Shown: positions 8,514-40,920, numbered from the stretch's first letter. The stretch: 64,000 nucleotides of DNA from Candidatus Roizmanbacteria bacterium CG_4_9_14_0_2_um_filter_38_17 (GCA_002788855.1 PFSB01000006.1:99292-163291), one strand, 5' to 3'. Notes: generated from the letters alone by a model not told the origin. Program-made: numbers and translations.

Positions 8514-9826
8514 TGTTTAAGATAAGGGCTAAAATATTAGTGGTAGCAGTTATCCTATCTTTAGGGTTAGGCTTTATCTTACATAACTATGCAAAGTATC
8601 CACAAAGAGGTGCTAGTGCTGATGAGTACACCTATTCATTTCTAGGTTTGAGTCTGATTAAAGACGGTGTTCCAACGTCATGGTCTCATTTTTCGGCATA
8701 CAAGAACAAGTACTCATTAACGATTAATAATGCCTACTTTCCAGTAGTATATCCATATTTTGATCATCCACCGCTTAATGGACTCTTAGTGGCATCAGTG
8801 GCACTTTTAAATGGTGAGCGGGAGTTTTATCAGATTAATCTTTCTACAATTCGTTTAGCACCCATATTTTTATTTATGGTTACTTCAACGCTAGTATTTT
8901 TAATAGGCAAAAAACTATATGGCTATAAGACTGGGTTATGGGCTCTCTTAATAAATATAACTACTACTATTATTGTAATGAATGCGCGTGTGGCATTTGC
9001 TGAGAATCTTTTAACTCCATTATTTCTACTAGCTTTGTACTTATATATACTATTTAAGGACAAACTTCGTGTACCAATCGTATTATTATTGGGTACTCTC
9101 TCGGGTCTTGCTATCTGGACTAAAGAGCTAGGGGTAATAGTCTTTATATCCTTGCTGTATCTTTTTATTGAAAGAAAGCAAAGCTTAAGATTGACGCTTC
9201 TACTAGTATCAACGACCCTCCTATTTGGATTTGGTTATGTATTATATGGTGCTTACTTTGACTGGGGATTGTTTAAGGAGATAATATTCATTCAATCTAC
9301 TAGAAATATAGGTCCTGATAATCTCCTGATACTTCTGTTTAAACCAATTATTGTCAATAAGGAGTATTATGATGGGTGGTACTTCTTGGGCTTACTAAGT
9401 ATATTTACAGCTTTAATTAAATATACAAAACATAAAATAATTATTGTTCCTGCTATGACATACTTTCTATTACTTATAGTTAGTGCTTCACAAGATATTA
9501 TATCTGGCTGGTATATGATACCCTTGTTTCCTTTAATGTCTATATTAACTGCGGCGCTATTGGTTGAGAGTCAGCGCAAGTTTAATTGGTATCCATTAGC
9601 GATGTTACTGTTTGTAGGGTTGTCACAGATGAAGTTAATATTTGAGCCTAATTTTGGATTGGCTCCTTCTCAATTTAGACTGTTCATGGTGATTATGTTT
9701 TTACCAGTTATTGGAGCGATGATGCTACAAAATAAGCGTGTTTATAGCTATTTAGTTAGTATCTGGTTTTATTTATTCATCCTGGGAAATGTTTATTTGA
9801 CATATAATTATGTACACCCAGCTTAA
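8513..9826 (+). CDS. ArnT/PMT-like (PMT_2, GT39/GT83-type) polyprenol-phosphate-sugar dependent glycosyltransferase
   Basis: N-terminal TM then loop with acidic ADEYTY motif and downstream HPPLNGLL motif resembling the DE...KPPL signature of ArnT/PMT_2 family; polytopic. Confidence 0.5.
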   Translation: MFKIRAKILVVAVILSLGLGFILHNYAKYPQRGASADEYTYSFLGLSLIKDGVPTSWSHFSAYKNKYSLTINNAYFPVVYPYFDHPPLNGLLVASVALLNGEREFYQINLSTIRLAPIFLFMVTSTLVFLIGKKLYGYKTGLWALLINITTTIIVMNARVAFAENLLTPLFLLALYLYILFKDKLRVPIVLLLGTLSGLAIWTKELGVIVFISLLYLFIERKQSLRLTLLLVSTTLLFGFGYVLYGAYFDWGLFKEIIFIQSTRNIGPDNLLILLFKPIIVNKEYYDGWYFLGLLSIFTALIKYTKHKIIIVPAMTYFLLLIVSASQDIISGWYMIPLFPLMSILTAALLVESQRKFNWYPLAMLLFVGLSQMKLIFEPNFGLAPSQFRLFMVIMFLPVIGAMMLQNKRVYSYLVSIWFYLFILGNVYLTYNYVHPA

Positions 9827-10048
9827 ATGAAAATACAGGATATTGGTTTTATTGCGGTTTTATTGGTAGTTTTGGTTATGAGGAAACCTCGCCTTTGTGT
9901 TGTTGTTGGATTAGCTTGTTTTGGATTATCTATTCCTTTGTTTGCTACTTGGACATTTTTTACAGCACAGAGGTTGACTTATTATGCCGGCGCATTTATT
10001 CTTCACGCTGTTTTGTTACAGCTATTTATTAGTACACCCCGCAAGTAG
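9827..10048 (+). CDS. Small membrane protein (hypothetical)
   Basis: 73-aa hydrophobic ORF; 3' end overlaps first copy of CCGCAAGTAGCCCTGA motif. Confidence 0.3.
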   Translation: MKIQDIGFIAVLLVVLVMRKPRLCVVVGLACFGLSIPLFATWTFFTAQRLTYYAGAFILHAVLLQLFISTPRK

Positions 10049-10054
10049 CCCTGA
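10039..10054. repeat. Recombination-site-like motif copy 1 (CACCCC-GCAAGTAGCCCTGA-ATTGC)
   Basis: Identical 16-mer CCGCAAGTAGCCCTGA recurs at 11449..11464 and a degenerate copy (CACCCCTTCAGTAGCCCCTTGA) at 11198..11219. Confidence 0.5.
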
Positions 10055-10177
10055 ATTGCTTTGGAGTCAGAAGGGTTACGCGTAGGCGGACAAGTTATTT
10101 GAACTTGGCAGGACTAATCTAAGCGAGGATAGCGTAAGTTAACTGGGGCATTGCAGAGCTCAATAGCATACCCCACG

Positions 10178-10186
10178 TGCTATAAT
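10178..10186 (+). promoter_or_regulatory. Extended -10 promoter element (TGcTATAAT) for MNT/HEPN operon
   Basis: TGCTATAAT 11 nt upstream of ATG 10197; implies short/leaderless transcript. Confidence 0.4.
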
Positions 10187-10196
10187 ATCTACAATA

Positions 10197-10484
10197 ATGC
10201 AGAGATCTGATTTATATAACAATACAAAAGATATTTTTTCTCATTATGGGGTTAAGAAAGCAGCAGTTTTTGGCTCGTATGCTCGTGGTGATAATAGAGA
10301 TGATAGTGATATTGACATTCTTGTTGAATTAGGTAGATCTATGGGTTTAATTGATTATTCTGGATTAAGGCTGGATTTACAGGATAGACTAGGGATGAAA
10401 GTAGATCTAGTTCAGTATAAAACAATAAAACCATCAATAAAGGAGTATATCTTAAAAGACGAAACTGTATTATTTCAAGCGTGA
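10197..10484 (+). CDS. Minimal nucleotidyltransferase (MNT) antitoxin of HEPN/MNT type II TA pair
   Basis: GSYARGD...DSDIDILV motif (GS-x9-Dx D Pol-beta NTase signature), 95 aa, 4-nt overlap with downstream HEPN gene. Confidence 0.75.
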   Translation: MQRSDLYNNTKDIFSHYGVKKAAVFGSYARGDNRDDSDIDILVELGRSMGLIDYSGLRLDLQDRLGMKVDLVQYKTIKPSIKEYILKDETVLFQA

Positions 10485-10807
10485 TGAAAATAGCTACTCC
10501 ATACATTGAGAATATTTTAGATTCAATTGTTCAGATTGAAAAATATTTAACTGAAATTAAATATGATAAAAAGTCTTTTCTAGAGAATATTGAAAAGCAA
10601 GATGCTGTTATTAGACGACTAGAAGTTATAGGTGAAGCTACAAAGAGACTAGAAGAAGATTATAAAAGCCAGTTTCCTAATGTTCCCTGGAAGAATATGG
10701 CAGGGATGAGAGATGTCCTAATTCACGACTATGACGAGGTGGATATTGACTTGGTTTGGGATACTGTAAGTAAAGATTTGGTTGTGCTCAAGGAAGCTAT
10801 TAAATAA
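10481..10807 (+). CDS. HEPN-domain toxin (HepT/DUF86 family)
   Basis: R-x4-H motif (RDVLIHDY) near C-terminus, 108 aa, coupled to MNT gene. Confidence 0.75.
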   Translation: MMKIATPYIENILDSIVQIEKYLTEIKYDKKSFLENIEKQDAVIRRLEVIGEATKRLEEDYKSQFPNVPWKNMAGMRDVLIHDYDEVDIDLVWDTVSKDLVVLKEAIK

Positions 10808-10894
10808 AATAGACTAGTGTAATATTTATGTTTACACTTATTTACAGCCCCTTTTAATGTGGGTGGGTTGAAACAGAATAGCAACCCATAGTGT

Positions 10895-10922
10895 TTGACA
10901 AATAGGCTTTGTTTTGTATACT
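10895..10922 (+). promoter_or_regulatory. Sigma70-like promoter (TTGACA-16nt-TATACT)
   Basis: TTGACA at 10895..10900 and TATACT at 10917..10922; track ORF 10895 starts on the TTG of the -35 box, real start probably ATG 10931. Confidence 0.45.
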
Positions 10923-10930
10923 CTTTGTAT

Positions 10931-11191
10931 ATGTCAGAAGCTAGACCAGGTATGGTTGTTTATGATGGAGCGTTAATGCAAGCACACGATGTTGCAGAGG
11001 AAATGTTTTGGTATGTCTACGGTGACGATTTATCTGAATCCAGGGAAATAGTTGCTGCGTACCGCAATAGGGCTGTTGGCTGTGGCTGTGGTAGGTGCCA
11101 AAAGGACGAGCATCGTGCATGGAAAGGGGAAATACAAAAGTTTATTGATCCCGAAAGTTTAAGTAATCTTTTTCCACATATAGACTGGTAG
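10931..11191 (+). CDS. Hypothetical small protein with CGCGRC motif
   Basis: 86-aa ORF (MSEARPGMVVYDGALMQAHD...VGCGCGRCQKDEHRAWKGE...), locally higher GC than surroundings. Confidence 0.3.
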   Translation: MSEARPGMVVYDGALMQAHDVAEEMFWYVYGDDLSESREIVAAYRNRAVGCGCGRCQKDEHRAWKGEIQKFIDPESLSNLFPHIDW

Positions 11192-11241
11192 TTTTTTCAC
11201 CCCTTCAGTAGCCCCTTGAGATTAGATCAGCTATATTTTTC

Positions 11242-11327
11242 CCATCTCTGACTGCTTGGTTGGTTCCTCGGTCTTCTGGATAAACTTGAGCCATATTTAC
11301 TAAATAGAGATTATCTATACCGGTTTT
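11242..11327 (-). pseudogene. Orphan 86-bp duplicate of the 3' end of the FAD-oxidoreductase gene (12159..12244)
   Basis: About 94 percent identity by eye to 12159..12244 (CCATCTCTGACTGCTTGGTTGG...TCTATACCGGTTTT); would encode the same C-terminal residues (...YLVNMAQVYPEDRGTNQAVRDGK) on the minus strand. Confidence 0.6.
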
Positions 11328-11344
11328 TTTGTTTTAAAACCGGG
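11321..11344. other. Hairpin CCGGTTTT-TTTGTTTT-AAAACCGG at duplication breakpoint
   Basis: 8-bp perfect stem, 8-nt loop, followed by palindromic GTTTTAAAAC. Confidence 0.3.
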
Positions 11345-11448
11345 TTTTAAAACAAATATGTTTCTGTCTTTAATCTTAGCAACTCTTTGGCGTCCACGCC
11401 TGAGTGCTATTGTGGGATTAGTATGTTTGTTATTGTCTATTTCTCTGT

Positions 11449-11464
11449 CCGCAAGTAGCCCTGA
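11449..11464. repeat. Recombination-site-like motif copy 3 (CCGCAAGTAGCCCTGA)
   Basis: Exact repeat of 10039..10054 with similar 3' extension (WTTGC). Confidence 0.5.
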
Positions 11465-11511
11465 TTTGCGCCAGAATTAACAAGGTTTGAATCTATCCGG
11501 GGGAGCGATTG

Positions 11512-11540
11512 TTGACAATCTGTACAGAATTATGTAAAAT
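11512..11540 (+). promoter_or_regulatory. Consensus sigma70 promoter TTGACA-17nt-TAAAAT driving leaderless Phd/RelE operon
   Basis: TTGACA 11512..11517, TAAAAT 11535..11540, ATG at 11547 (only 6 nt after -10). Confidence 0.6.
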
Positions 11541-11546
11541 GAAGAC

Positions 11547-11822
11547 ATGACAATAACAATACCCATAACACAAGCAAGGGAAGAATTGACGAGCCTTGTG
11601 GATAATGTCAAGAGGAAGCTAGATGAGTATGTAATTACAGTTAATGGAACCCCTGCGGCGGTTGTGATATCTTCGGCAGAGTACGAATCTTGGAAAGAAA
11701 CAAATGAAATTCTATCTGATTTGGAACTTACAAAAGCTATAAAGAAGGGTGAGAAAGATGTAGATAAAGGACGGATTTATTCTCTTGAACAGCTGAGAAA
11801 AGAATTGAAACTTGTTTTTTAA
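11547..11822 (+). CDS. Phd/YefM-family antitoxin
   Basis: 91 aa, N-terminal ITQAREELTSLVDNV...VNGTPAAVVISSAEYESWKET typical Phd/YefM fold; immediately upstream of RelE-like gene. Confidence 0.75.
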   Translation: MTITIPITQAREELTSLVDNVKRKLDEYVITVNGTPAAVVISSAEYESWKETNEILSDLELTKAIKKGEKDVDKGRIYSLEQLRKELKLVF

Positions 11823-11827
11823 GTAAG

Positions 11828-12079
11828 ATGTATAGAATACTTATTACTTCTCAAGCTAGAAAAGAACTCAAAAAGATTAAAAAGAAATACCAGCAAGCAA
11901 TAGTAGAAATACTTGTTGAGCTTCAAGAAAATCCCAGATCAGGCAAGCCCCTAACGCGAGAGTTGACTGGAAAATTTTCTTATAAGGTAGGAGTATATAG
12001 AATAATATATACAATTAATGACCTAGATAAGACAATCCATATTCTAACAGCGGGTCATCGTTCTAGTGTATATAAATAG
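11828..12079 (+). CDS. RelE/ParE-family toxin (type II)
   Basis: 83 aa, basic N-terminus, C-terminal ...YRIIYTINDLDKTIHILTAGHRS consistent with RelE/ParE. Confidence 0.75.
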   Translation: MYRILITSQARKELKKIKKKYQQAIVEILVELQENPRSGKPLTRELTGKFSYKVGVYRIIYTINDLDKTIHILTAGHRSSVYK

Positions 12080-12118
12080 CTTGTGTGAATTTTCTGCAAG
12101 GACAAAACTTGCAGAAAA

Positions 12119-13447
12119 TTAGTATTCACCAAAGATGATTTTGTCTGCAATTGATTTTCCATCTCTGACTGCTTGGTTGGTGCCTCTGTCTTCCGGATAA
12201 ACTTGAGCCATGTTTACTAAATAGAGATTATCTATACCGGTTTTAACAGGTGGGATATAGTTATGATAATTTGTGTCTACGATGGGTTGAGCAAACTTAT
12301 CTCTAAATATCCAATGTGCATCTACAAAGGACTTGTTAAATTTGGGATTAATTTTCTTTAGTTCTTTAACAATTAGCTCAAATAAGTCTGTTTTATTCAT
12401 GGTCATTAACTCGTCCGTCTGGGCTGGGTAGGCACCAGCATAAAGCAAGTGAGCTCCACTATATTTATTTGGTGATACAAAATTAGTATGTTCAACTACA
12501 GCCAGAATATGTGAATTTGGATCGTTAACGTTTAGCCAATAGATATCTTTCATAAATTGTTTTTTTAGTTGCAAGATGGCCACCATTGCCCCACGATACT
12601 TAACCTTAGCCAGTTTTTCTGTATATTCTGCTGGTAAAGATGGGCAAAGCTTGGCAAAGACTGGATTTGGGGTTGTGACAATAATTTTGTCATATTGCAA
12701 GGTTTGACCTTTTTGAACTTGCAGGGTCAAACCCTGTTTGCTTGAAGGTTTAATTTCAACAATGTCTGAATTGGTATAGAGATTTACCTGCTTATTCCTA
12801 AGCTTCTCTAATAGCTTATCAATTAATAATTTAAATCCTCCATCAAGATAGACCAGCTCCTCATTAGCGCCGTTTCTGGATTTGCTTCGAAGATATAGCC
12901 TTGACCAGAGCCAAGCCATGGATATGCTGTCTGCGTGTTCTCCAAACTTTCCCTTTAAAAGTGGTTCCCAGATTATCTTATATGCCCTTCGGCCCGCGTA
13001 TTTGAGAATCCAGTTGCCAGCTGACAACTGTGCTAGCTTTTTCCAATTTTTATCAGTAACAAATTTTTGTAGATATATTGCCACAAACCCCAGTCTAATT
13101 CGGTCAATAAGGGGTAGAGGAGAGAAATGAAGTAAGTCTTTTGGTGTGGAGAAAGAGTAGATTTTACTGTTGTAGTGGATACCTACTGAACTTGGTAAAT
13201 AAAGTAGCTTATGATCAATATTTAGTTCGTGAATAAGGCCAATAATATCTTTGTCAGATTTAAATAGGTGATGATAGTAGCCTTCAAAACCTACTCCATT
13301 TACTGTAAGCAATCCCAGTAGTCCACCAAAATTAGCATTTTTTTCGTATAGATCTATCTGGTATTCGGGGTTTTGTGAGAGATAATAGGTTGTGCTTAAT
13401 CCTGACATGCCTCCTCCGATTATTGCAATTTTTGTTTTCATGCTCAA
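12119..13447 (-). CDS. FAD-dependent oxidoreductase (amine oxidase / desaturase / UDP-galactopyranose-mutase-like fold)
   Basis: N-terminal dinucleotide motif KIAIIGGGMSGLSTTYYL, 442 aa. Confidence 0.6.
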   Translation of the reverse strand: MSMKTKIAIIGGGMSGLSTTYYLSQNPEYQIDLYEKNANFGGLLGLLTVNGVGFEGYYHHLFKSDKDIIGLIHELNIDHKLLYLPSSVGIHYNSKIYSFSTPKDLLHFSPLPLIDRIRLGFVAIYLQKFVTDKNWKKLAQLSAGNWILKYAGRRAYKIIWEPLLKGKFGEHADSISMAWLWSRLYLRSKSRNGANEELVYLDGGFKLLIDKLLEKLRNKQVNLYTNSDIVEIKPSSKQGLTLQVQKGQTLQYDKIIVTTPNPVFAKLCPSLPAEYTEKLAKVKYRGAMVAILQLKKQFMKDIYWLNVNDPNSHILAVVEHTNFVSPNKYSGAHLLYAGAYPAQTDELMTMNKTDLFELIVKELKKINPKFNKSFVDAHWIFRDKFAQPIVDTNYHNYIPPVKTGIDNLYLVNMAQVYPEDRGTNQAVRDGKSIADKIIFGEY

Positions 13448-30251: not shown

Positions 30252-32219
30252 ATGGATTTTAAAAAAATAGAAATAAATAACCAACCAGAAGCTCAAGTTG
30301 AGACTAAAGGTTCAAGCAGAAGGAGACTTAAGGTGGGCTTTCCCAAGCTTAAATTCAGTAAAAAAACTGGAATAATCTTGACAGCTCTACTAGGAATTCC
30401 GCTTATATTACTAATTGTTTTGGGTGTAGTCGTGGGTATTCCAGCTCGCCAAATTTATGCAGATGCTAAAGTAGCTAAGGATCAACTTCAGGTAACCAAT
30501 GCAGCTATAAAAAAGCAAAATCTCAAAGATGCTAAAGAAAGCTTAAAAGACTCCAAAGACAAACTTACAGTTCTTAATGCTTCTGTTAGTAAGCTTAACT
30601 GGTTTGGATCCCTACCAGTTGTTGGTGCCTACCAAAAAGATTTGAAAAGTTTGGTGACAGCGGGGATAGCAGCTGTTGAGGGAGGTCAAATTGCGGTAGA
30701 TGCGATTGAGCCATATGCAGATTTATTAGGCTTAGAGGAAGGGACCTCATTTGTAAATAAATCTACCGAAGATCGCTTGCAAACAGCTGTGACGACAATA
30801 GGTAAACTGAGCCCAGCGTTAGATGAGATTGCAGGAAAATTGACTATTGTAAGAGATGAAATTGGGAGCATTGATCCAGCTAGATATCCAGAAAAGTACA
30901 AAGACCAGGAGGTAAGAGTTAAGATTGTAGACGCTAAGGCTCAAGTTAACGATCTAGCAGATCTGTTTATTGACGCGAAGCCATTTTTAACCGCGCTACC
31001 TGATCTAATGGGGGCAGACGAAGCAAAAACATATCTTTTCCTTTTTCAGAATGACAAAGAACTACGTCCAACGGGTGGCTTTATTACAGCCTATGCATAC
31101 TTCCGGATGCACAAGGGTAAAATTGAGGTAATTCGCTCAGATGATATCTACAATCTAGATAATGCTAGACGAAAGAAAGTTGCCGCTCCTGAAGAGCTAT
31201 TAAAATATCATAAAGAGGTCTATGAGCTAACCTTAAGAGACAGTAATTTATCTCCAGATTTTAGGGAATCAATGTTGTTATTTGAGGAGTTATATAGTGA
31301 TGTTTCGGGTAATTTGGAGATAGATGGAATCTTTGCTTTAGATACGCATATGTTGGCAGAGTCGATGAAAATTCTTGGTCCGATAAATGCATATGGTACA
31401 ACTTTTACAACTGAACCCGATGATCGTTGCGGTGGCTGTCCGCAAGTGGTGTATGAACTGGAGGAATATGCGGACAAACGAGTCGGCTATATACGAGAAA
31501 ATAGAAAAGATATTATTGGAGTATTAATGTCCCAAATTATGCAAAAAGCGTTAGGAGTATCTCCTGGTCAGTACTGGGGTCGATTGTTCCAGATGACACT
31601 TGACGAAGTTGGGCAGAAGCATTTTATTGCATATTTCCATGATAAAGACGCTCAAGCAGGAGCAGAGGCACTTAACTTTGCTGGCAGGATAAAGGATTTT
31701 GATGGAGATTACTTGCATGTTAATGATACTAACTTTGCTGGAGCAAAATCTAATATGTTTACAAATCATACGGTTGAACAAGAAATAGATATTGCTAAGG
31801 ATGGGACAGTTACAAAGACTTTAACCTTAAGTTATAAAAATACAGAACCAGGTTCTCCTGGTTGTAACTTAGAGCGCGGAGGCCTTTGTTTGAATGGATT
31901 GCTTAGAAACTGGGTACGTATTTACACACCAGAAGGATCCCAGCTTCTGGACTTTAAAGGTTCAGAGACCGATCCAGTGGAGAAGAATGAATTAGGAAAG
32001 ACGGTTTTTGAAGGATTCTTTACAGTGCGACCTGAGGGACAAGCGCAGCTAAAAGTTTCGTATAAGTTGCCGTTTAAGGTGAGCTCTACTGAGGACTATA
32101 ATATGTTAATTCAAAAACAAGCTGGTACAGAAGGTCATAAATATATTATTAAACTGAATGGTAAAATGGTTGAAGAGTTTGATCTTATTACAGATAAAGA
32201 ACTTCAACTCACCCTCTAG
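30252..32219 (+). CDS. Membrane-anchored extracytoplasmic protein, DUF4012-like
   Basis: Single N-terminal TM (GIILTALLGIPLILLIVLGVVVGI), coiled-coil region, conserved-looking RPTGGFITAYAYF segment; start set to ATG 30252. Confidence 0.4.
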   Translation: MDFKKIEINNQPEAQVETKGSSRRRLKVGFPKLKFSKKTGIILTALLGIPLILLIVLGVVVGIPARQIYADAKVAKDQLQVTNAAIKKQNLKDAKESLKDSKDKLTVLNASVSKLNWFGSLPVVGAYQKDLKSLVTAGIAAVEGGQIAVDAIEPYADLLGLEEGTSFVNKSTEDRLQTAVTTIGKLSPALDEIAGKLTIVRDEIGSIDPARYPEKYKDQEVRVKIVDAKAQVNDLADLFIDAKPFLTALPDLMGADEAKTYLFLFQNDKELRPTGGFITAYAYFRMHKGKIEVIRSDDIYNLDNARRKKVAAPEELLKYHKEVYELTLRDSNLSPDFRESMLLFEELYSDVSGNLEIDGIFALDTHMLAESMKILGPINAYGTTFTTEPDDRCGGCPQVVYELEEYADKRVGYIRENRKDIIGVLMSQIMQKALGVSPGQYWGRLFQMTLDEVGQKHFIAYFHDKDAQAGAEALNFAGRIKDFDGDYLHVNDTNFAGAKSNMFTNHTVEQEIDIAKDGTVTKTLTLSYKNTEPGSPGCNLERGGLCLNGLLRNWVRIYTPEGSQLLDFKGSETDPVEKNELGKTVFEGFFTVRPEGQAQLKVSYKLPFKVSSTEDYNMLIQKQAGTEGHKYIIKLNGKMVEEFDLITDKELQLTL

Positions 32220-32770
32220 TGGAATCCTTTAAAGCAGTAGCAGTTATTCTAAAGCGAACGAACTTTGGCGAAGCAGATAGATATGTTTCATTATTTACCC
32301 GGTCACGAGGTAAGCTTACAGGTATTGCAAAAGGAGTTAGGAAAATGACTAGCCGCAGAGCAGCTCATCTTGAGATATTTAATCAGTCGAAACTATATTT
32401 TTCGGTAAACAATGGAACATATTATATTAATGGAGTTGAGAGTATTAATAACTATCGAAACCTTAAAGAAAATGAAGCTAAAGTCCATTTGGCGTTTGCA
32501 TTTTGTGAGTTGATTGAAAAAATATCTCCCGAAGGTGTTCCAAACAGAAAAGTATACGATGTGTTATTGCTGGCGCTTGATCACATAGATAAGCTATCTG
32601 AAGAACTTACTTTGTCTTACTGCGATAAGGTGATAGAAAGATTCTTTTTAAGAGTATTAACTGAATACGGATATATATCAGATACTATGTCAGTTGATGT
32701 GATGGAATATGCTCAACAAATCATTGGACGCAAGTTTAACTCAATTGAGGTAGCTAAACGTACATTATGA
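32219..32770 (+). CDS. recO: DNA repair protein RecO (short form)
   Basis: N-terminal OB-fold pattern AVILKRTNFGEADRYVSLFTRSRGKLTGIAKGVRK. Confidence 0.55.
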   Translation: MESFKAVAVILKRTNFGEADRYVSLFTRSRGKLTGIAKGVRKMTSRRAAHLEIFNQSKLYFSVNNGTYYINGVESINNYRNLKENEAKVHLAFAFCELIEKISPEGVPNRKVYDVLLLALDHIDKLSEELTLSYCDKVIERFFLRVLTEYGYISDTMSVDVMEYAQQIIGRKFNSIEVAKRTL

Positions 32771-36757: not shown

Positions 36758-37026
36758 AAAAAACAATAATTCTAACCCTGATTCCGTTGTTAATATTATT
36801 TGTTGTACAGATTACTGTATCTGCAAAAGTCTCTGGCATAGGTAAAGATGTGGCGCTTATTGAAGCCAATGCGATCAAACTTGACCGCGAAAATGATTTA
36901 TTACAGCATAAAGTAGCTAGTGAAACTGCCCTTCTTATAGTGCAGCAAAAAGCTGAAAAACTGGGAATAACTACCAAGGTTCCCGTTGAGTTTCTTGACG
37001 ATTCGGTGTATGTTGTACAGAGATGA
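36754..37026 (+). CDS. ftsL: Cell-division protein FtsL-like (single TM plus coiled coil)
   Basis: 90 aa, one TM, position between rsmH and ftsI. Confidence 0.55.
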   Translation: MKKTIILTLIPLLILFVVQITVSAKVSGIGKDVALIEANAIKLDRENDLLQHKVASETALLIVQQKAEKLGITTKVPVEFLDDSVYVVQR

Positions 37027-38693
37027 ACCGGTTACGCTTTATAGGGCTGTTGTTTATGTTAGTCTTCTTGCTAATCTGGGTTAGGCTTTTTTATTGGCAG
37101 GTAATTCAGCGGGATCGGCTCGCAACTCAAGCACAAGGACAATATGCTTCGGAGTATAGTGTATTTCCAACGCGCGGCAAAATTCTATCAGTTGATAATG
37201 CTGTTATTGTTACTAATCAACCTGCTTACATCCTATTTGCTGAGACTAAAAAATTACCTTCAGATAAGAACTATATATTTGAGATAGCCAAGGCGTTGGA
37301 AATTGAAGAAGCTTCGATTGCCGCAACTCTAGATACACAAAAAAACTGGGTGTCTGTAGTTCGTAAAGTAACCACGGAACAAAAACAACTTATTGAGGAG
37401 TTAGAGATTTCTGGTTTGGGTTTTGAACAGGAGAATGTGCGTTTTTATCCTGAAGGCTCGGCAAGTGCTGCTTTATTGGGTTTTGTAGGTGGAGATCTAA
37501 GCGGAGAGCCCAAGGGCTATTTTGGGCTTGAGGGTTATTATGATGAAATTTTGACGGGCAAGCCAGGTTTTGTACGTGCTGAAAAAGATGCACATGGGGT
37601 ACCAATACCCATAGGCTCACAAAAGCGCATAGAAGCTATTGAGGGCGCTGATTTAGTGTTAAATATCGACGTTGGAATTCAAAATGCTGTAGAGCAACAC
37701 TTAAAACGAGGAATAGAACGATATGAAGCAACGTCTGGCGCGGTTATTGTGATGCGCCCTACAACTGGTGCAATAGTCGCAATGGCGTCTTTTCCCTCTT
37801 ATGATCAGCGAGACTATGCAAATTATGATCCGAAGCTGTACAAAAATTCAATAGTGGCTGATACATTCGAACCTGGTTCAACTTTTAAGGTTATTACTAT
37901 GGCTGCTGCTATCAATGAAAAGGTAATTAAACCAACAACTACATATATGGAAACCGGACCTGTAGTTGTGCAGGGATACAAAATTAGAACATGGAATGAG
38001 CAATATGGTGGAAAGACAAATATGACCGAAGTGCTTGAAAGATCTTCTAATGTGGGAATGGTGTTTATTAGCCAGAAACTTGGCATAGAGCTTTTTTACA
38101 AGTATCTTCGTGAATTTGGCTTTGGCGCATATACTGGTATAGATCTTCAGGAGGAAGTAAGTTCTCCTTTGCGTAAAAGAGATTCCTGGAAAGAGATAGA
38201 TCTGGCAACCTCATCTTTTGGCCAGGGAATAGCTGTAACTCCAATTCAGTTAATACGCGGGGTTGCGGCAATTGCTAATCAGGGCGAGCTGGTGGTGCCT
38301 AAAATTGCAAATGCCATGCGCTTTGAGGATAATAGGGTGATTGACCTGATGACGGAACAAGGCAAGAGAGTGATATCTCCAGCTACCGCAAGTATAGTGA
38401 CGGAAATGATGGTTTCATCAGTAGATAATGGTGATGCGCGCTGGGCTAAGCCAAAGGGTTTTCGTATTGCCGGCAAAACTGGTACTGCCCAGATTCCAGT
38501 TGAGGGTCGTTATGATCCAGATCGTACTATAGCTTCTTTTATTGGTTTTGCTCCAGCTAATGATCCCGAGTTTATTATGCTTGTAATACTTAAAGAACCT
38601 CAGACTTCTCCTTGGGGGTCTGAAACAGCAGCGCCGCTTTTCTTTGATATCTCCCGCGACCTCTTTGCGTATCTGAATGTATCTCCAAGTTAA
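37023..38693 (+). CDS. ftsI: Peptidoglycan D,D-transpeptidase FtsI / class B PBP
   Basis: STFK (SxxK), SSN and KTGT active-site motifs, N-terminal TM. Confidence 0.9.
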   Translation: MNRLRFIGLLFMLVFLLIWVRLFYWQVIQRDRLATQAQGQYASEYSVFPTRGKILSVDNAVIVTNQPAYILFAETKKLPSDKNYIFEIAKALEIEEASIAATLDTQKNWVSVVRKVTTEQKQLIEELEISGLGFEQENVRFYPEGSASAALLGFVGGDLSGEPKGYFGLEGYYDEILTGKPGFVRAEKDAHGVPIPIGSQKRIEAIEGADLVLNIDVGIQNAVEQHLKRGIERYEATSGAVIVMRPTTGAIVAMASFPSYDQRDYANYDPKLYKNSIVADTFEPGSTFKVITMAAAINEKVIKPTTTYMETGPVVVQGYKIRTWNEQYGGKTNMTEVLERSSNVGMVFISQKLGIELFYKYLREFGFGAYTGIDLQEEVSSPLRKRDSWKEIDLATSSFGQGIAVTPIQLIRGVAAIANQGELVVPKIANAMRFEDNRVIDLMTEQGKRVISPATASIVTEMMVSSVDNGDARWAKPKGFRIAGKTGTAQIPVEGRYDPDRTIASFIGFAPANDPEFIMLVILKEPQTSPWGSETAAPLFFDISRDLFAYLNVSPS

Positions 38694-38771: not shown

Positions 38772-39482
38772 ATGAGAAAAGATGCGGTGTTTGTAGTCGG
38801 TGAGTTTTATCATGTATATAATAGAGGAACTCGTAAAAGCGAAATATTTTTGAATGAAAGTGATTATAGACGATGAGATGAGTGTTTGTATTGGAGTAAT
38901 AATTTTGGCTATCCCTATAGTCTTCTAAGACAGCAAATTAATCAGGCGAAAAAGAGTGGTAGAAATATTAAAGAAGTAGTTGAACAAATTGAAATGCAGT
39001 ACCGATTATTTGAGTCTTTGGTTAATGTAATTTCTTACGCACATATGCCAAATCACTTTCACCTAGTCTTGAGGCAAAATGTAGATAATGGAATATCAAA
39101 ATTTATGCATAAAATGTCGGCTTCTTATGCAAAGTACTTTAACAAGAAGTACAATCTAACCGGATCACTGTATGAAGGAAATTTTAGAGCGATTCAGATA
39201 ATATCTGAACCTCAACTATTAGAAGTTAGTAGATATGTTCATATTAATCCAACTGTAGCAGGAATTGTTGATATAAAGGGTTTGCTTACATATCCCTGGA
39301 CATCGTTGCGTTTATATGTAGGAGAAGTGAATAATAAGCTCGTTGATATCAGTTATTTACTCGGCTTAAGTAATAATAACGCAGAAGAGCTGGTAAGGTT
39401 TACTCTTTCCAGGATTAGCGATGATAATGAAGGACTATTGGAAGGGATAATGATTGATGGTAACAAATTAGCCCGTAAATAA
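38772..39482 (+). pseudogene. RAYT copy 2, disrupted by in-frame TGA (TGG to TGA at the Trp position conserved in copy 1)
   Basis: ATG 38772 gives MRKDAVFVVGEFYHVYNRGTRKSEIFLNESDYRR-stop-DECLYW...; downstream part intact with MPNHFHLVL and RYVHINPTVAGIV (Y-x-H-x-N-P) motifs; copy 1 has DSDYVRWENLLSW at the equivalent position. Confidence 0.65.
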
Positions 39483-39642: not shown

Positions 39643-40920
39643 ATGGCTTTAGTTACAAAGCTTCGTGGTCTGATTCCAAATAATTTAGTTAATACTTTTT
39701 GGCATTATCCTATTGCTTTGTTTGCGGCTTTGAGATATGGGTTTCCAGCTAAAAAACTTACTTTAATTGGGGTAACAGGTACAGATGGAAAGACTACTAC
39801 AACTTACATTATTAACCATTTGTTAAAAAAAGCTGGATATAAAACAGCTATGATCACGTCTGTATTGGCGGAGATAGCTGGCAAAACTAGTAATACAGGT
39901 TTTCATGTTACCAGTCCCCATCCTTGGCAAGTGCAGAAATATTTAGCTGAAGCAGTTAAATCTGGGGTAACTCATGCGATTCTAGAAGTTACTTCCCACG
40001 CATTGGATCAACACAGATTTGCCGGTTGTAGTTTTAGGTATGGAATTGTAACGAATATTAAACCTGACCACCTGGACTATCATAAAACTTATGATAACTA
40101 CTTTCATTCAAAGTCTAAGCTACTCTTAGGAGCTCAAAAAGCAGTTCTTAACAAAGACGATCAAAGCTTTAACAGGCTAAATACACTCTTAACAGGAAAA
40201 GATATTGTTACGTATAGCATTAAGGAGCAAGCAGACTTTACAGGTAAAAAAATAATACAAACAAGTATACCTGTCACTCTACCAGGAGATTACAATCTAT
40301 CCAATATTCTGGCCGCCACAGCCGTTGTAAATAATATTGGCCTCTCTATTGATGAAGTTAGTAAATATTTACCATCTTTTAAAGCAGTACCAGGCAGATT
40401 TAATGAAGTAGATATTAAAAAAGACTTTCGGGTAGTAATAGATTTTGCCCATACGCCCTATGGTTTACAGGCTTTACTTACTGCGCTGCGGAATCAAACT
40501 CAGGCAAGAATTATAGCTGTATTTGGTTGTGCGGCAGAACGTGGAGCAGATAGGCGAGAGATGGGCAGGGTAGGTGGTAAGTTGGCAGATATAACAATTA
40601 TTACAGCCGAGGATCCTCGTTTTGAAGGCGTGGAAAAGATAAGCGCTGTGATTGCAGGTTGGGCAGATAAAGCTGGAGCAGAAGAATTAAGCAGCAAACA
40701 GTTAGGAGATAGTAGCAAAAAAGATAAGCATGTATATACTAAAATAGCAGATCGGCAAGGGGCAATAAATGCTGCAATAGACATTGCAAAGCCTGGAGAT
40801 ATTATTGTTTTATGTGGAAAAGGACACGAGCAAAGTATGAATTTTAGAGGAGTTGAATATCCTTGGGATGAAAATAAGGCTGTTCAAAAAGCCCTAACTA
40901 AAAGATATGGATCTAAGTAA
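39643..40920 (+). CDS. murE: MurE-like Mur ligase (UDP-MurNAc-L-Ala-D-Glu:diamino acid ligase) lacking canonical N-terminal domain
   Basis: P-loop GVTGTDGKTTTTYII at residue 44, C-terminal AVFGCAAERGADRR...TAEDPRFE resembling MurE FGCGGDRD...DNPRxE region; in-frame stop 6 codons upstream of ATG. Confidence 0.7.
   Translation: MALVTKLRGLIPNNLVNTFWHYPIALFAALRYGFPAKKLTLIGVTGTDGKTTTTYIINHLLKKAGYKTAMITSVLAEIAGKTSNTGFHVTSPHPWQVQKYLAEAVKSGVTHAILEVTSHALDQHRFAGCSFRYGIVTNIKPDHLDYHKTYDNYFHSKSKLLLGAQKAVLNKDDQSFNRLNTLLTGKDIVTYSIKEQADFTGKKIIQTSIPVTLPGDYNLSNILAATAVVNNIGLSIDEVSKYLPSFKAVPGRFNEVDIKKDFRVVIDFAHTPYGLQALLTALRNQTQARIIAVFGCAAERGADRREMGRVGGKLADITIITAEDPRFEGVEKISAVIAGWADKAGAEELSSKQLGDSSKKDKHVYTKIADRQGAINAAIDIAKPGDIIVLCGKGHEQSMNFRGVEYPWDENKAVQKALTKRYGSK

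Follow-up and report, generated by a model that had tools for sequence, protein, structure and literature searches.

Two toxin-antitoxin cassettes at a convergent gene-end junction in Roizmanbacteria and the probable spread of one of them by homologous recombination

Integrative elements that insert in the 3' ends of genes, typically tRNA or tmRNA genes, carry a replacement end and give attL/attR direct repeats. Insertion-duplication (Campbell-type) integration and homology-facilitated illegitimate recombination have been defined in the laboratory in Acinetobacter, Streptococcus and Bacillus, and toxin-antitoxin (TA) genes are known as cassettes in chromosomal integrons and as the "dif modules" of Acinetobacter plasmids. 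Bacteria of the Candidate Phyla Radiation (CPR) have tiny genomes with few recognisable mobile elements, genetics on them is to our knowledge possible for no one, and the exchange of accessory and defence genes among them is largely unknown. The locus analyzed in this study lies in a stretch of 64,000 nucleotides (nt) from Candidatus Roizmanbacteria bacterium CG_4_9_14_0_2_um_filter_38_17 (GCA_002788855.1 PFSB01000006.1:99292-163291), called the window below, and consists of two TA cassettes, M1 and M2, between two convergent genes, A and B. Among the described systems with which it can be compared are the minimal mobile elements (MMEs) of Neisseria (Saunders & Snyder 2002; Snyder et al. 2007; as defined in PMC3787668).

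What lies between the two conserved flanking genes at this locus differs among close relatives, which fits the definition of an MME given in PMC3787668, and as in that definition identical cassettes are found in distant backgrounds, there is no dedicated recombinase and exchange would be by homologous recombination in the flanks. Going by the same source, the locus departs from the Neisseria MMEs in that its host is an uncultivated CPR bacterium whose transformation can only be presumed, in that the variable segment takes in the last codons of both flanking genes, and in that one cassette carries a copy of the target end, so that both of its homology arms map to B. The explanation preferred here is that two independent cassettes occupy a hotspot at the junction of A and B and that a 917-bp unit around M2 moves by homologous recombination in a recombinase-free manner, which the sequence comparisons described below make probable. 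The components and the general principle are already known, and this is not a new class of system.

A and B lie tail to tail in a cell-envelope glycan cluster (PMT_2 mannosyltransferase-like genes, glycosyltransferases and a sulfatase-like gene). Gene A (9827-10048, plus strand, an open reading frame (ORF) call) encodes a small membrane protein of 73 amino acids and is the conserved left flank of the hotspot; its homologues (n=87) are mostly 70-75 amino acids long and widespread in Microgenomates, and its final ~7 codons, from 10029 onward, vary among alleles. Gene B (12119-13441, minus strand, with its recorded start an ATG at 13441) encodes an oxidoreductase of the FAD/NAD(P) amine-oxidase family and is the conserved right flank. 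Close relatives of B are few, and a contig search of genomes with B returned only 36-38% relatives, with gene A near none of them. From left to right the order is the end of A, M1, a stranded end of B (the stub, B'), a palindrome, a truncated end of A (A'), M2 and the end of the working B.

The junction was compared with its counterparts in related genomes, which are given by L numbers. In L016, whose B protein is 86% identical, the order is PMT_2, A and B, the genes A and B overlap by 20 nt and no cassette is present; this allele is the empty site. The first-pass annotation, made from the sequence of the window alone, had described a toxin-antitoxin islet inserted into the glycan cluster as one element. 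The empty convergent arrangement of L016 bears out the insertion, but what was inserted are two independently exchangeable cassettes and not one element. The sibling L026 matches the window at 99.0% from 9216 to 10028, departs from it inside A at codon ~67, and continues past 10028 with the 3' end of an AAA_14/DUF4143 ATPase gene in convergent orientation. This gene, which encodes 385 amino acids and is present in L021-L024, L026 and L028-L030 (e.g. L022 443-1600, minus strand), takes the place of M1 in sibling strains and overlaps the last codons of A by 9 nt. At the protein level it is conserved at 99.5-100% identity between lineages that are 85-99% identical in their flanks. In L021-L024, with flanks ~85% identical to those of the window, the order is A, AAA_14 and B, and there are no TA genes.

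M2 and its surroundings are found beside different left neighbours. In L030 and L033, which are of the L022 lineage, the order is AAA_14, a B stub with an L022-type tail, palindrome, A', Phd/RelE and B. L031 and L032 have the unit behind a different left neighbour, L037 has it behind a much more divergent stub, and L029 and L038 have it behind a stub shortened to ~28 nt. In L036 and L039 an IS481-like transposase gene adjoins the M2 promoter and similarity to the window begins at 11507. In L017 (B 77% identical) relE and the hairpin that follows it are 98% identical to the window, with ~75% identity just inside B, and L020 (B 78% identical) has a CopG-type antitoxin gene together with a 21-nt core of the palindrome beside B. 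Read together, these alleles show the meeting point of the convergent genes A and B to be a hypervariable hotspot in this Roizmanbacteria clade, at which cassettes are gained, lost and swapped, and the locus offers four states, empty, single, double and alternative occupancy, at the level of the nucleotide.

Gene A of L028 and L029 (L029 7416-7640) is 95.6% identical to that of the window and has a methyltransferase gene upstream instead of PMT_2. Because the DNA upstream of these copies of A is unrelated, the start of A is another recombination breakpoint. L028 and L029 come from the same samples as L017 and L018, of whose locus they probably represent the other half.

Both flanking genes have their ends duplicated within the locus. 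The segment 11238-11327 aligns with 12155-12244 over 90 nt without gaps, and 85 of the 90 positions are identical (5 mismatches, 94.4%; BLAST E = 7e-34 against a small set of fetched loci), so that the duplication of the 3' end of B noted in the first pass at 86 bp and about 94% is real and slightly longer. The left direct repeat belongs to the B' stub (11198-11327, minus strand) and the right one lies within B, next to an element-type tail at 12119-12154. The stub runs leftward through 40 codons to its own stop at 11205-11207 and ends in RDGKNIADLISRGY, whereas B ends in RDGKSIADKIIFGEY. Since it reaches its own stop with another tail, the stranded piece is a complete 3' end of ~123 nt that differs in its tail. 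Within each genome the two direct repeats are 87-94% identical. The type of B tail tracks the neighbouring cassette and not the lineage of B, and the tail SIADKIIFGEY is found with M2 in the 100% B cluster as well as in the 86% one. No intact B allele with the stub tail (...ADLISRGY) was found among the cluster members.

The second duplicated end had gone unnoticed. The segment 11394-11448 is a 75% copy of 9887-9941 in gene A, and the frame 11304-11477 matches a profile of the gene A family (87 homologues) with E = 3e-4, over family positions 11-40 only; the corresponding frames of L030, L037 and L029 match at ~1e-5. This pseudogene fragment, A' (11358-11469, plus strand), has lost its first ~10 codons and, internally, a further 97 nt with a frameshift. 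It is 75% identical to A, compared with 94% between B' and B, and it occurs with an unchanged motif in L030-type genomes whose resident A ends differently, both of which indicate that A' travels with the M2 unit.

These two remnants account for the short motifs that had been taken as att-like separators of three modules. In the 64 kb there are just two exact copies of the 16-mer CCGCAAGTAGCCCTGA, at 10039 and 11449, where 0.18 occurrences are expected at up to 3 mismatches. Extended to the 21-mer CCGCAAGTAGCCCTGAWTTGC, the two plus-strand copies (10039-10059 and 11449-11469) are identical at 20 of 21 positions. The copy placed at about 11204 did not hold up: at 11198 only 14 of 17 positions agree, a search that allowed up to 3 mismatches to the 16-mer did not pick it up, and it is therefore not significant alone. 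Copy 1 (10035-10059, CACCCCGCAAGTAGCCCTGAATTGC) is the 3' end and stop of A followed by the nucleotides up to the left edge of M1. Copy 2 is the 3' end of A' carried inside the unit and, because 11394-11448 copies A, it is the end of a truncated pseudogene and not a free-standing site. Copy 3 (11198-11219) covers the stop region of the stub and is probably a remnant of the old zone of overlap between A and B. The motifs do not mark the boundaries of exchange either, as the break in the sibling L026 falls at 10028/10029, still within A and ahead of the motif. The earlier account is right on the anatomy of the right-hand module and wrong on the att role of the short repeats and on the islet as a single element.

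Comparison of the unoccupied L022 with the occupied L030 gives the insertion as 11328-12244 (917 bp, plus strand), made up of the palindrome, A', Phd/RelE and a 126-nt replacement 3' end of B. In occupied alleles the recipient's own B tail remains as the stub and the unit provides the new tail, and the insertion in the 3' end of B, the replacement end and the direct repeats that had been proposed from the window are all seen when L022 is set against L030 and L033. Over the ~827 nt of its core (11328-12154) the unit shows no more than 8 mismatches (~99% identity) in L030-L033 and L037, whose flanks are 77-86% identical; in L029, L034-L036, L038 and L039 the core could be compared over partial coverage only. 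A near-identical core is thus present in at least 4 backgrounds, its non-coding parts included. Typical mismatch counts are 0/29 in the palindrome, 2/113 in A', 0/77 in the promoter segment, 2/281 in phd, 0/252 in relE, 1/39 in the hairpin and 0/36 in the B tail, and in binned counts against the window the B sequence from 12155 rightwards has 10-20% mismatches. Non-coding and pseudogene stretches are conserved to the same degree as the genes, and the pattern is therefore one of recent horizontal spread and not of purifying selection.

How the unit enters B can be judged from the points at which sequence of the host type gives way to sequence of the element type within the shared 126-nt segment, read against L034 as the element reference. 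In the stub the change from host type to element type falls at ~36 in the window, ~49 in L030-L033 and ~109 in L037, and in the new B end the change back to host type falls at ~81 (L030, L032 and L037) or ~99 (L031 and L033). Stub types and right-end types are combined differently among backgrounds. Variable switch points and recombined types are expected from two homologous crossovers and not from a recombinase with a fixed core. In L037 donor-type sequence also extends ~50 nt past the repeat, and neither a 126-nt circle nor a fixed att core explains this.

A rival model takes the unit for a non-autonomous integrative element mobilised by Xer, or by a tyrosine or serine recombinase from another part of the genome, with an att core at or near ACCGGTTTT within the B'/B repeats, in line with the attL/attR reading of the first-pass annotation. 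Such elements classically leave direct repeats of a gene 3' end and supply a replacement end, and like them the M2 unit duplicates the 3' end of its target, keeps the gene intact and leaves the native end as a stub. The joint between stub and unit, ACCGGTTTT followed directly by TTTGTTTTAAAACC (ACCGGTTTT and then TTTG), is the same in the window, L030-L033, L034 and L037, that is, wherever the stub is full-length, and its recurrence at the same nucleotide in five backgrounds would fit an attachment site. So would the palindrome at the joint, which can be read with 11-nt arms and a 7-nt centre, and the stub of L037, which is of the host type to within 17 nt of the joint. The order in L034, A' end, Phd/RelE, M2-type B tail, repeat, palindrome and A', resembles a circular form. 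However, an identical joint is predicted equally well by a single founding illegitimate event, and this is how it is interpreted here. The L034 form, which could be tandem or circular, would likewise be expected from unequal or intramolecular recombination between repeats, and is also the form that the founding duplication itself might have taken. The palindrome is at one end only and the right end of the unit is plain B, so the ends are not reciprocal hybrids of two sites. The repeats differ from those of replacement-end elements in being 87-94% identical and not identical, the crossovers vary and can lie outside the repeat, which is contrary to the view of the repeats as att sites with a fixed core, and the unit is only 917 bp long. 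Finally, none of the 52 ORFs of at least 100 amino acids in the window has a tyrosine or serine recombinase domain, in agreement with the earlier remark that no integrase is present. Having neither a recombinase in the window nor an identical fixed core, the unit does not behave as an integrase-dependent element, and this explanation is considered unlikely.

L034 (859 nt) and L035 (592 nt) both begin at the equivalent of position 11445 of the window, which is the joint of the internal deletion in A'. This common start suggests a second left context for Phd/RelE in those samples, possibly an undeleted A.

In the unoccupied state the convergent 3' ends of A and B overlap. Under the homologous recombination model, M1 lies between A and the former native end of B, which is now the B' stub. 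The M2 unit would have started out in another lineage, where it stood between A and B as an ordinary Phd/RelE cassette, and one illegitimate event, perhaps a tandem-duplication or circularisation joint, would have fused position 126 of B to the palindrome in front of a truncated A. From then on palindrome, A' and Phd/RelE would be flanked on both sides by sequence homologous to B. A chromosomal donor with stub, unit and B, its DNA presumably taken up by natural transformation, could then enter a naive B through two homologous crossovers, the left one inside the 126-nt stub and the right one in B, rightward of the position in B at which the left one occurred. The recipient would retain its own B tail as the stub and gain a working replacement tail, and no dedicated recombinase would be needed. 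From what is generally known of TA systems, the TA pair probably counteracts loss of the unit by recombination between the direct repeats, through post-segregational killing. Like insertion-duplication and homology-facilitated illegitimate recombination, this scheme has the incoming M2 DNA anchored by homology to one gene, duplicates the anchor and has a short-homology joint on one side (17 nt in L037). Unlike those processes, it concerns a naturally circulating cassette in which the joint was made once and then inherited.

Several observations weigh against this model. The mechanism is read from sequence mosaics only, and gene conversion between the repeat copies after a site-specific insertion could yield similar mosaics. 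The 17 nt left between the host-type part of the L037 stub and the junction are very few for a RecA-type crossover and are what one would see with a fixed integration point. M1 and M2 have the same left boundary to the nucleotide, after ...TGAWTTGC (20/21 identical), in spite of the bodies of A and A' being only 75% identical, and the model does not predict this. The founding allele, with an intact A, Phd/RelE and B and no stub, was not found among the alleles. RecO is encoded at 32219-32770, whereas RecA and competence genes lie outside the 64-kb window, and the pairing of L029 with L017 is assumed. The common TGAWTTGC boundary leaves a small opening for a site-specific process or a shared donor lineage; an unknown site-specific system acting at ...TGAWTTGC is, however, a less likely reading than the "homing" one that follows.

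The homologous recombination model can be taken one step further, to the view of the unit as a selfish "homing" TA cassette. Such a cassette would combine a fossilised duplication joint, a portable arm of homology to the 3' end of its target, recombinase-free invasion of B genes down to ~77% identity across Roizmanbacteria species, and a TA pair that punishes repeat-mediated deletion. This extension is put forward tentatively, as a possibility that falls somewhat short of an even chance. More generally, the locus suggests that homologous recombination at a gene-end hotspot, here within an envelope-glycan cluster, carries small TA cassettes from one Roizmanbacteria species to another. On this model one illegitimate joint can convert an ordinary cassette into a unit with its own homology arm, which helps to interpret "orphan" gene-end duplications elsewhere.

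Other explanations fare worse. A local tandem duplication of A, cassette and B in the ancestry of this strain, with one copy replaced or decayed and no horizontal movement, would account for the order of A end, cassette and B end that occurs twice over and for the unit-to-unit joint of L034. Against it, A' and A are 75% identical whereas B' and B are 94% identical, the two cassettes are unrelated, and a ~99% identical unit stands beside other left neighbours with flanks of 77-86% identity, in one lineage with an unoccupied allele as well. Duplication in situ was rejected as contradicted by the identity of the unit across lineages, and it is very unlikely as the origin of the arrangement.

Movement of the cassettes by insertion sequences, for example by composite or one-ended transposition of the IS481-like element of L036 and L039, draws on the presence of the N-terminus of an IS481-like transposase next to the M2 promoter in two samples. 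There is no homologue of this transposase in the window, there are no terminal inverted repeats around M1 or the unit, and every other background is without the insertion sequence. The breakpoint (11506/11507) lies within the unit, and the element therefore looks like a secondary insertion; this explanation is highly improbable. In L036 (3-680, minus strand) and L039 the transposase gene, which is partial and matches NF033577 with E = 7e-18, replaces the palindrome and A'. An assembly artefact caused by the 90-nt repeat, although the contigs of L005, L017, L029, L034 and L035 do end at or near the palindrome or inside M2, has next to nothing in its favour and was rejected, because the arrangement recurs in more than 20 independent JGI and ENA assemblies (99.9-100% identical, contigs up to 110 kb) and the two copies of the repeat, with 5 differences in 90 positions, fall well below k = 141 in length.

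Both TA cassettes are ordinary in themselves. M1 (10060-11197, or from 10029 if the variable end of A is included; plus strand) begins with an MntA-like nucleotidyltransferase gene (MNT, 10197-10484) followed by a HepT/HEPN RNase gene (10484-10807), the ATG of which, at 10484, overlaps the MNT stop at 10482-10484. M2 (11470-12118, plus strand) consists of a promoter, a Phd/YefM antitoxin gene (11547-11822), a RelE/ParE toxin gene (11828-12079) and a hairpin, with phd preceding relE at an intergenic gap of 5 nt. The identities assigned in the first pass were borne out by Pfam profiles for both pairs: PF18765 gave 63.8 bits for MNT (cutoff 26.9; PF01909 was also above threshold), PF01934 89.3 bits for HEPN (cutoff 23.5), PF02604 51.0 bits for Phd/YefM (cutoff 29.8) and PF05016 51.5 bits for RelE/ParE (cutoff 23). 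With NCBIfam only Phd/RelE was above cutoff (TIGR01552, 51.8 bits against 20.8; TIGR02385, 33.2 bits against 27.9), and the equivalog scores of MntA (57.3 bits) and HepT (55.9 bits) were slightly below the cutoff of 60. The catalytic motifs are intact in the translations, Rx4H as RDVLIH in HEPN and GSx(n)DxD as GSYARG...DSDID in MNT. By gene arrangement and motifs the first pair would be a type VII HepT/MntA system, and the second, above all family thresholds, is a type II system.

The strong promoters close to gene starts that had been reported were also found, at 10895-10922 in front of ORF86 and at 11512-11540 in M2 (-35 at 11512-11517, -10 at 11535-11540); both are near consensus with 11/12 matches and end 8 and 6 nt, respectively, upstream of the ATG. 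ORF86 (10931-11191, plus strand), the third gene of M1, had no match in Pfam or NCBIfam. Its product is rich in cysteine (...CGCGRCQKDEH...) and it travels with the MNT/HepT pair. Like the TA cassettes of integrons and dif modules, M1 and M2 are small, discrete and exchangeable TA operons that probably stabilise their neighbourhood. They are unlike them in having no IntI, no attC- or pdif-like site repeated at both ends, promoters of their own and boundaries that are remnants of target genes. With no integrase, own promoters and a single palindrome the cassettes do not qualify as integron cassettes, a comparison for which no formal attC model was run, and since no inverted repeats bracket either of them they do not qualify as IS200/IS605 elements or miniature inverted-repeat transposable elements.

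The palindrome that forms the left end of the M2 unit (11328-11356, TTTGTTTTAAAACC-G-GGTTTTAAAACAAA) is perfect, with 14-nt arms, and occurs once in the window. The hairpin placed at the breakpoint in the first pass (11321-11344) was recovered as the minimum-energy fold (-10 kcal/mol, z = -3.6). A second hairpin is predicted by folding at 12088-12120, where a 13-bp stem abuts the stop codon of B, and is unrelated to the palindrome in sequence. A dif/Xer-like or IS200-like role for the palindrome was considered and rejected, because only one end of the unit has it and the second hairpin bears no relation to it. The idea that a remnant of A follows the palindrome in L020 was dropped too, since the gene A profile detects none there and only the 21-nt core is common. 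The short-stub allele of L038 has an 11-nt tandem duplication (TTTTTCCCATTTTTCCCATCTC) at ~80-105, immediately left of the palindrome.

A search of viral contigs for the palindrome and of plasmids and phages by blastn with 10029-12244 gave no match, and the cassettes are therefore not linked to a known plasmid or phage. No mobility gene was found in M1, the M2 unit or the window (a homologue of Y1 transposases 27 kb from the cassettes is described below), and the secondary IS481-like insertion is found in one variant only.

The window as a whole has a GC skew above 0 in all 1-kb bins (0.01-0.38) and nearly all of its genes are on the plus strand, which is consistent with the leading strand of one replichore. 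There are no tRNA genes in the 64 kb. The Y1 (HUH) transposase homologue (38886-39482, plus strand) is an IS200/RAYT-like protein of 198 amino acids that matches PF01797 with E = 1e-8 and the NCBIfam model for REP-associated tyrosine transposases with E = 1.5e-9, under the equivalog cutoff. It lies in a division and cell-wall cluster, flanked by the genes for a penicillin-binding protein (37023-38693) and a Mur ligase (39643-40920).

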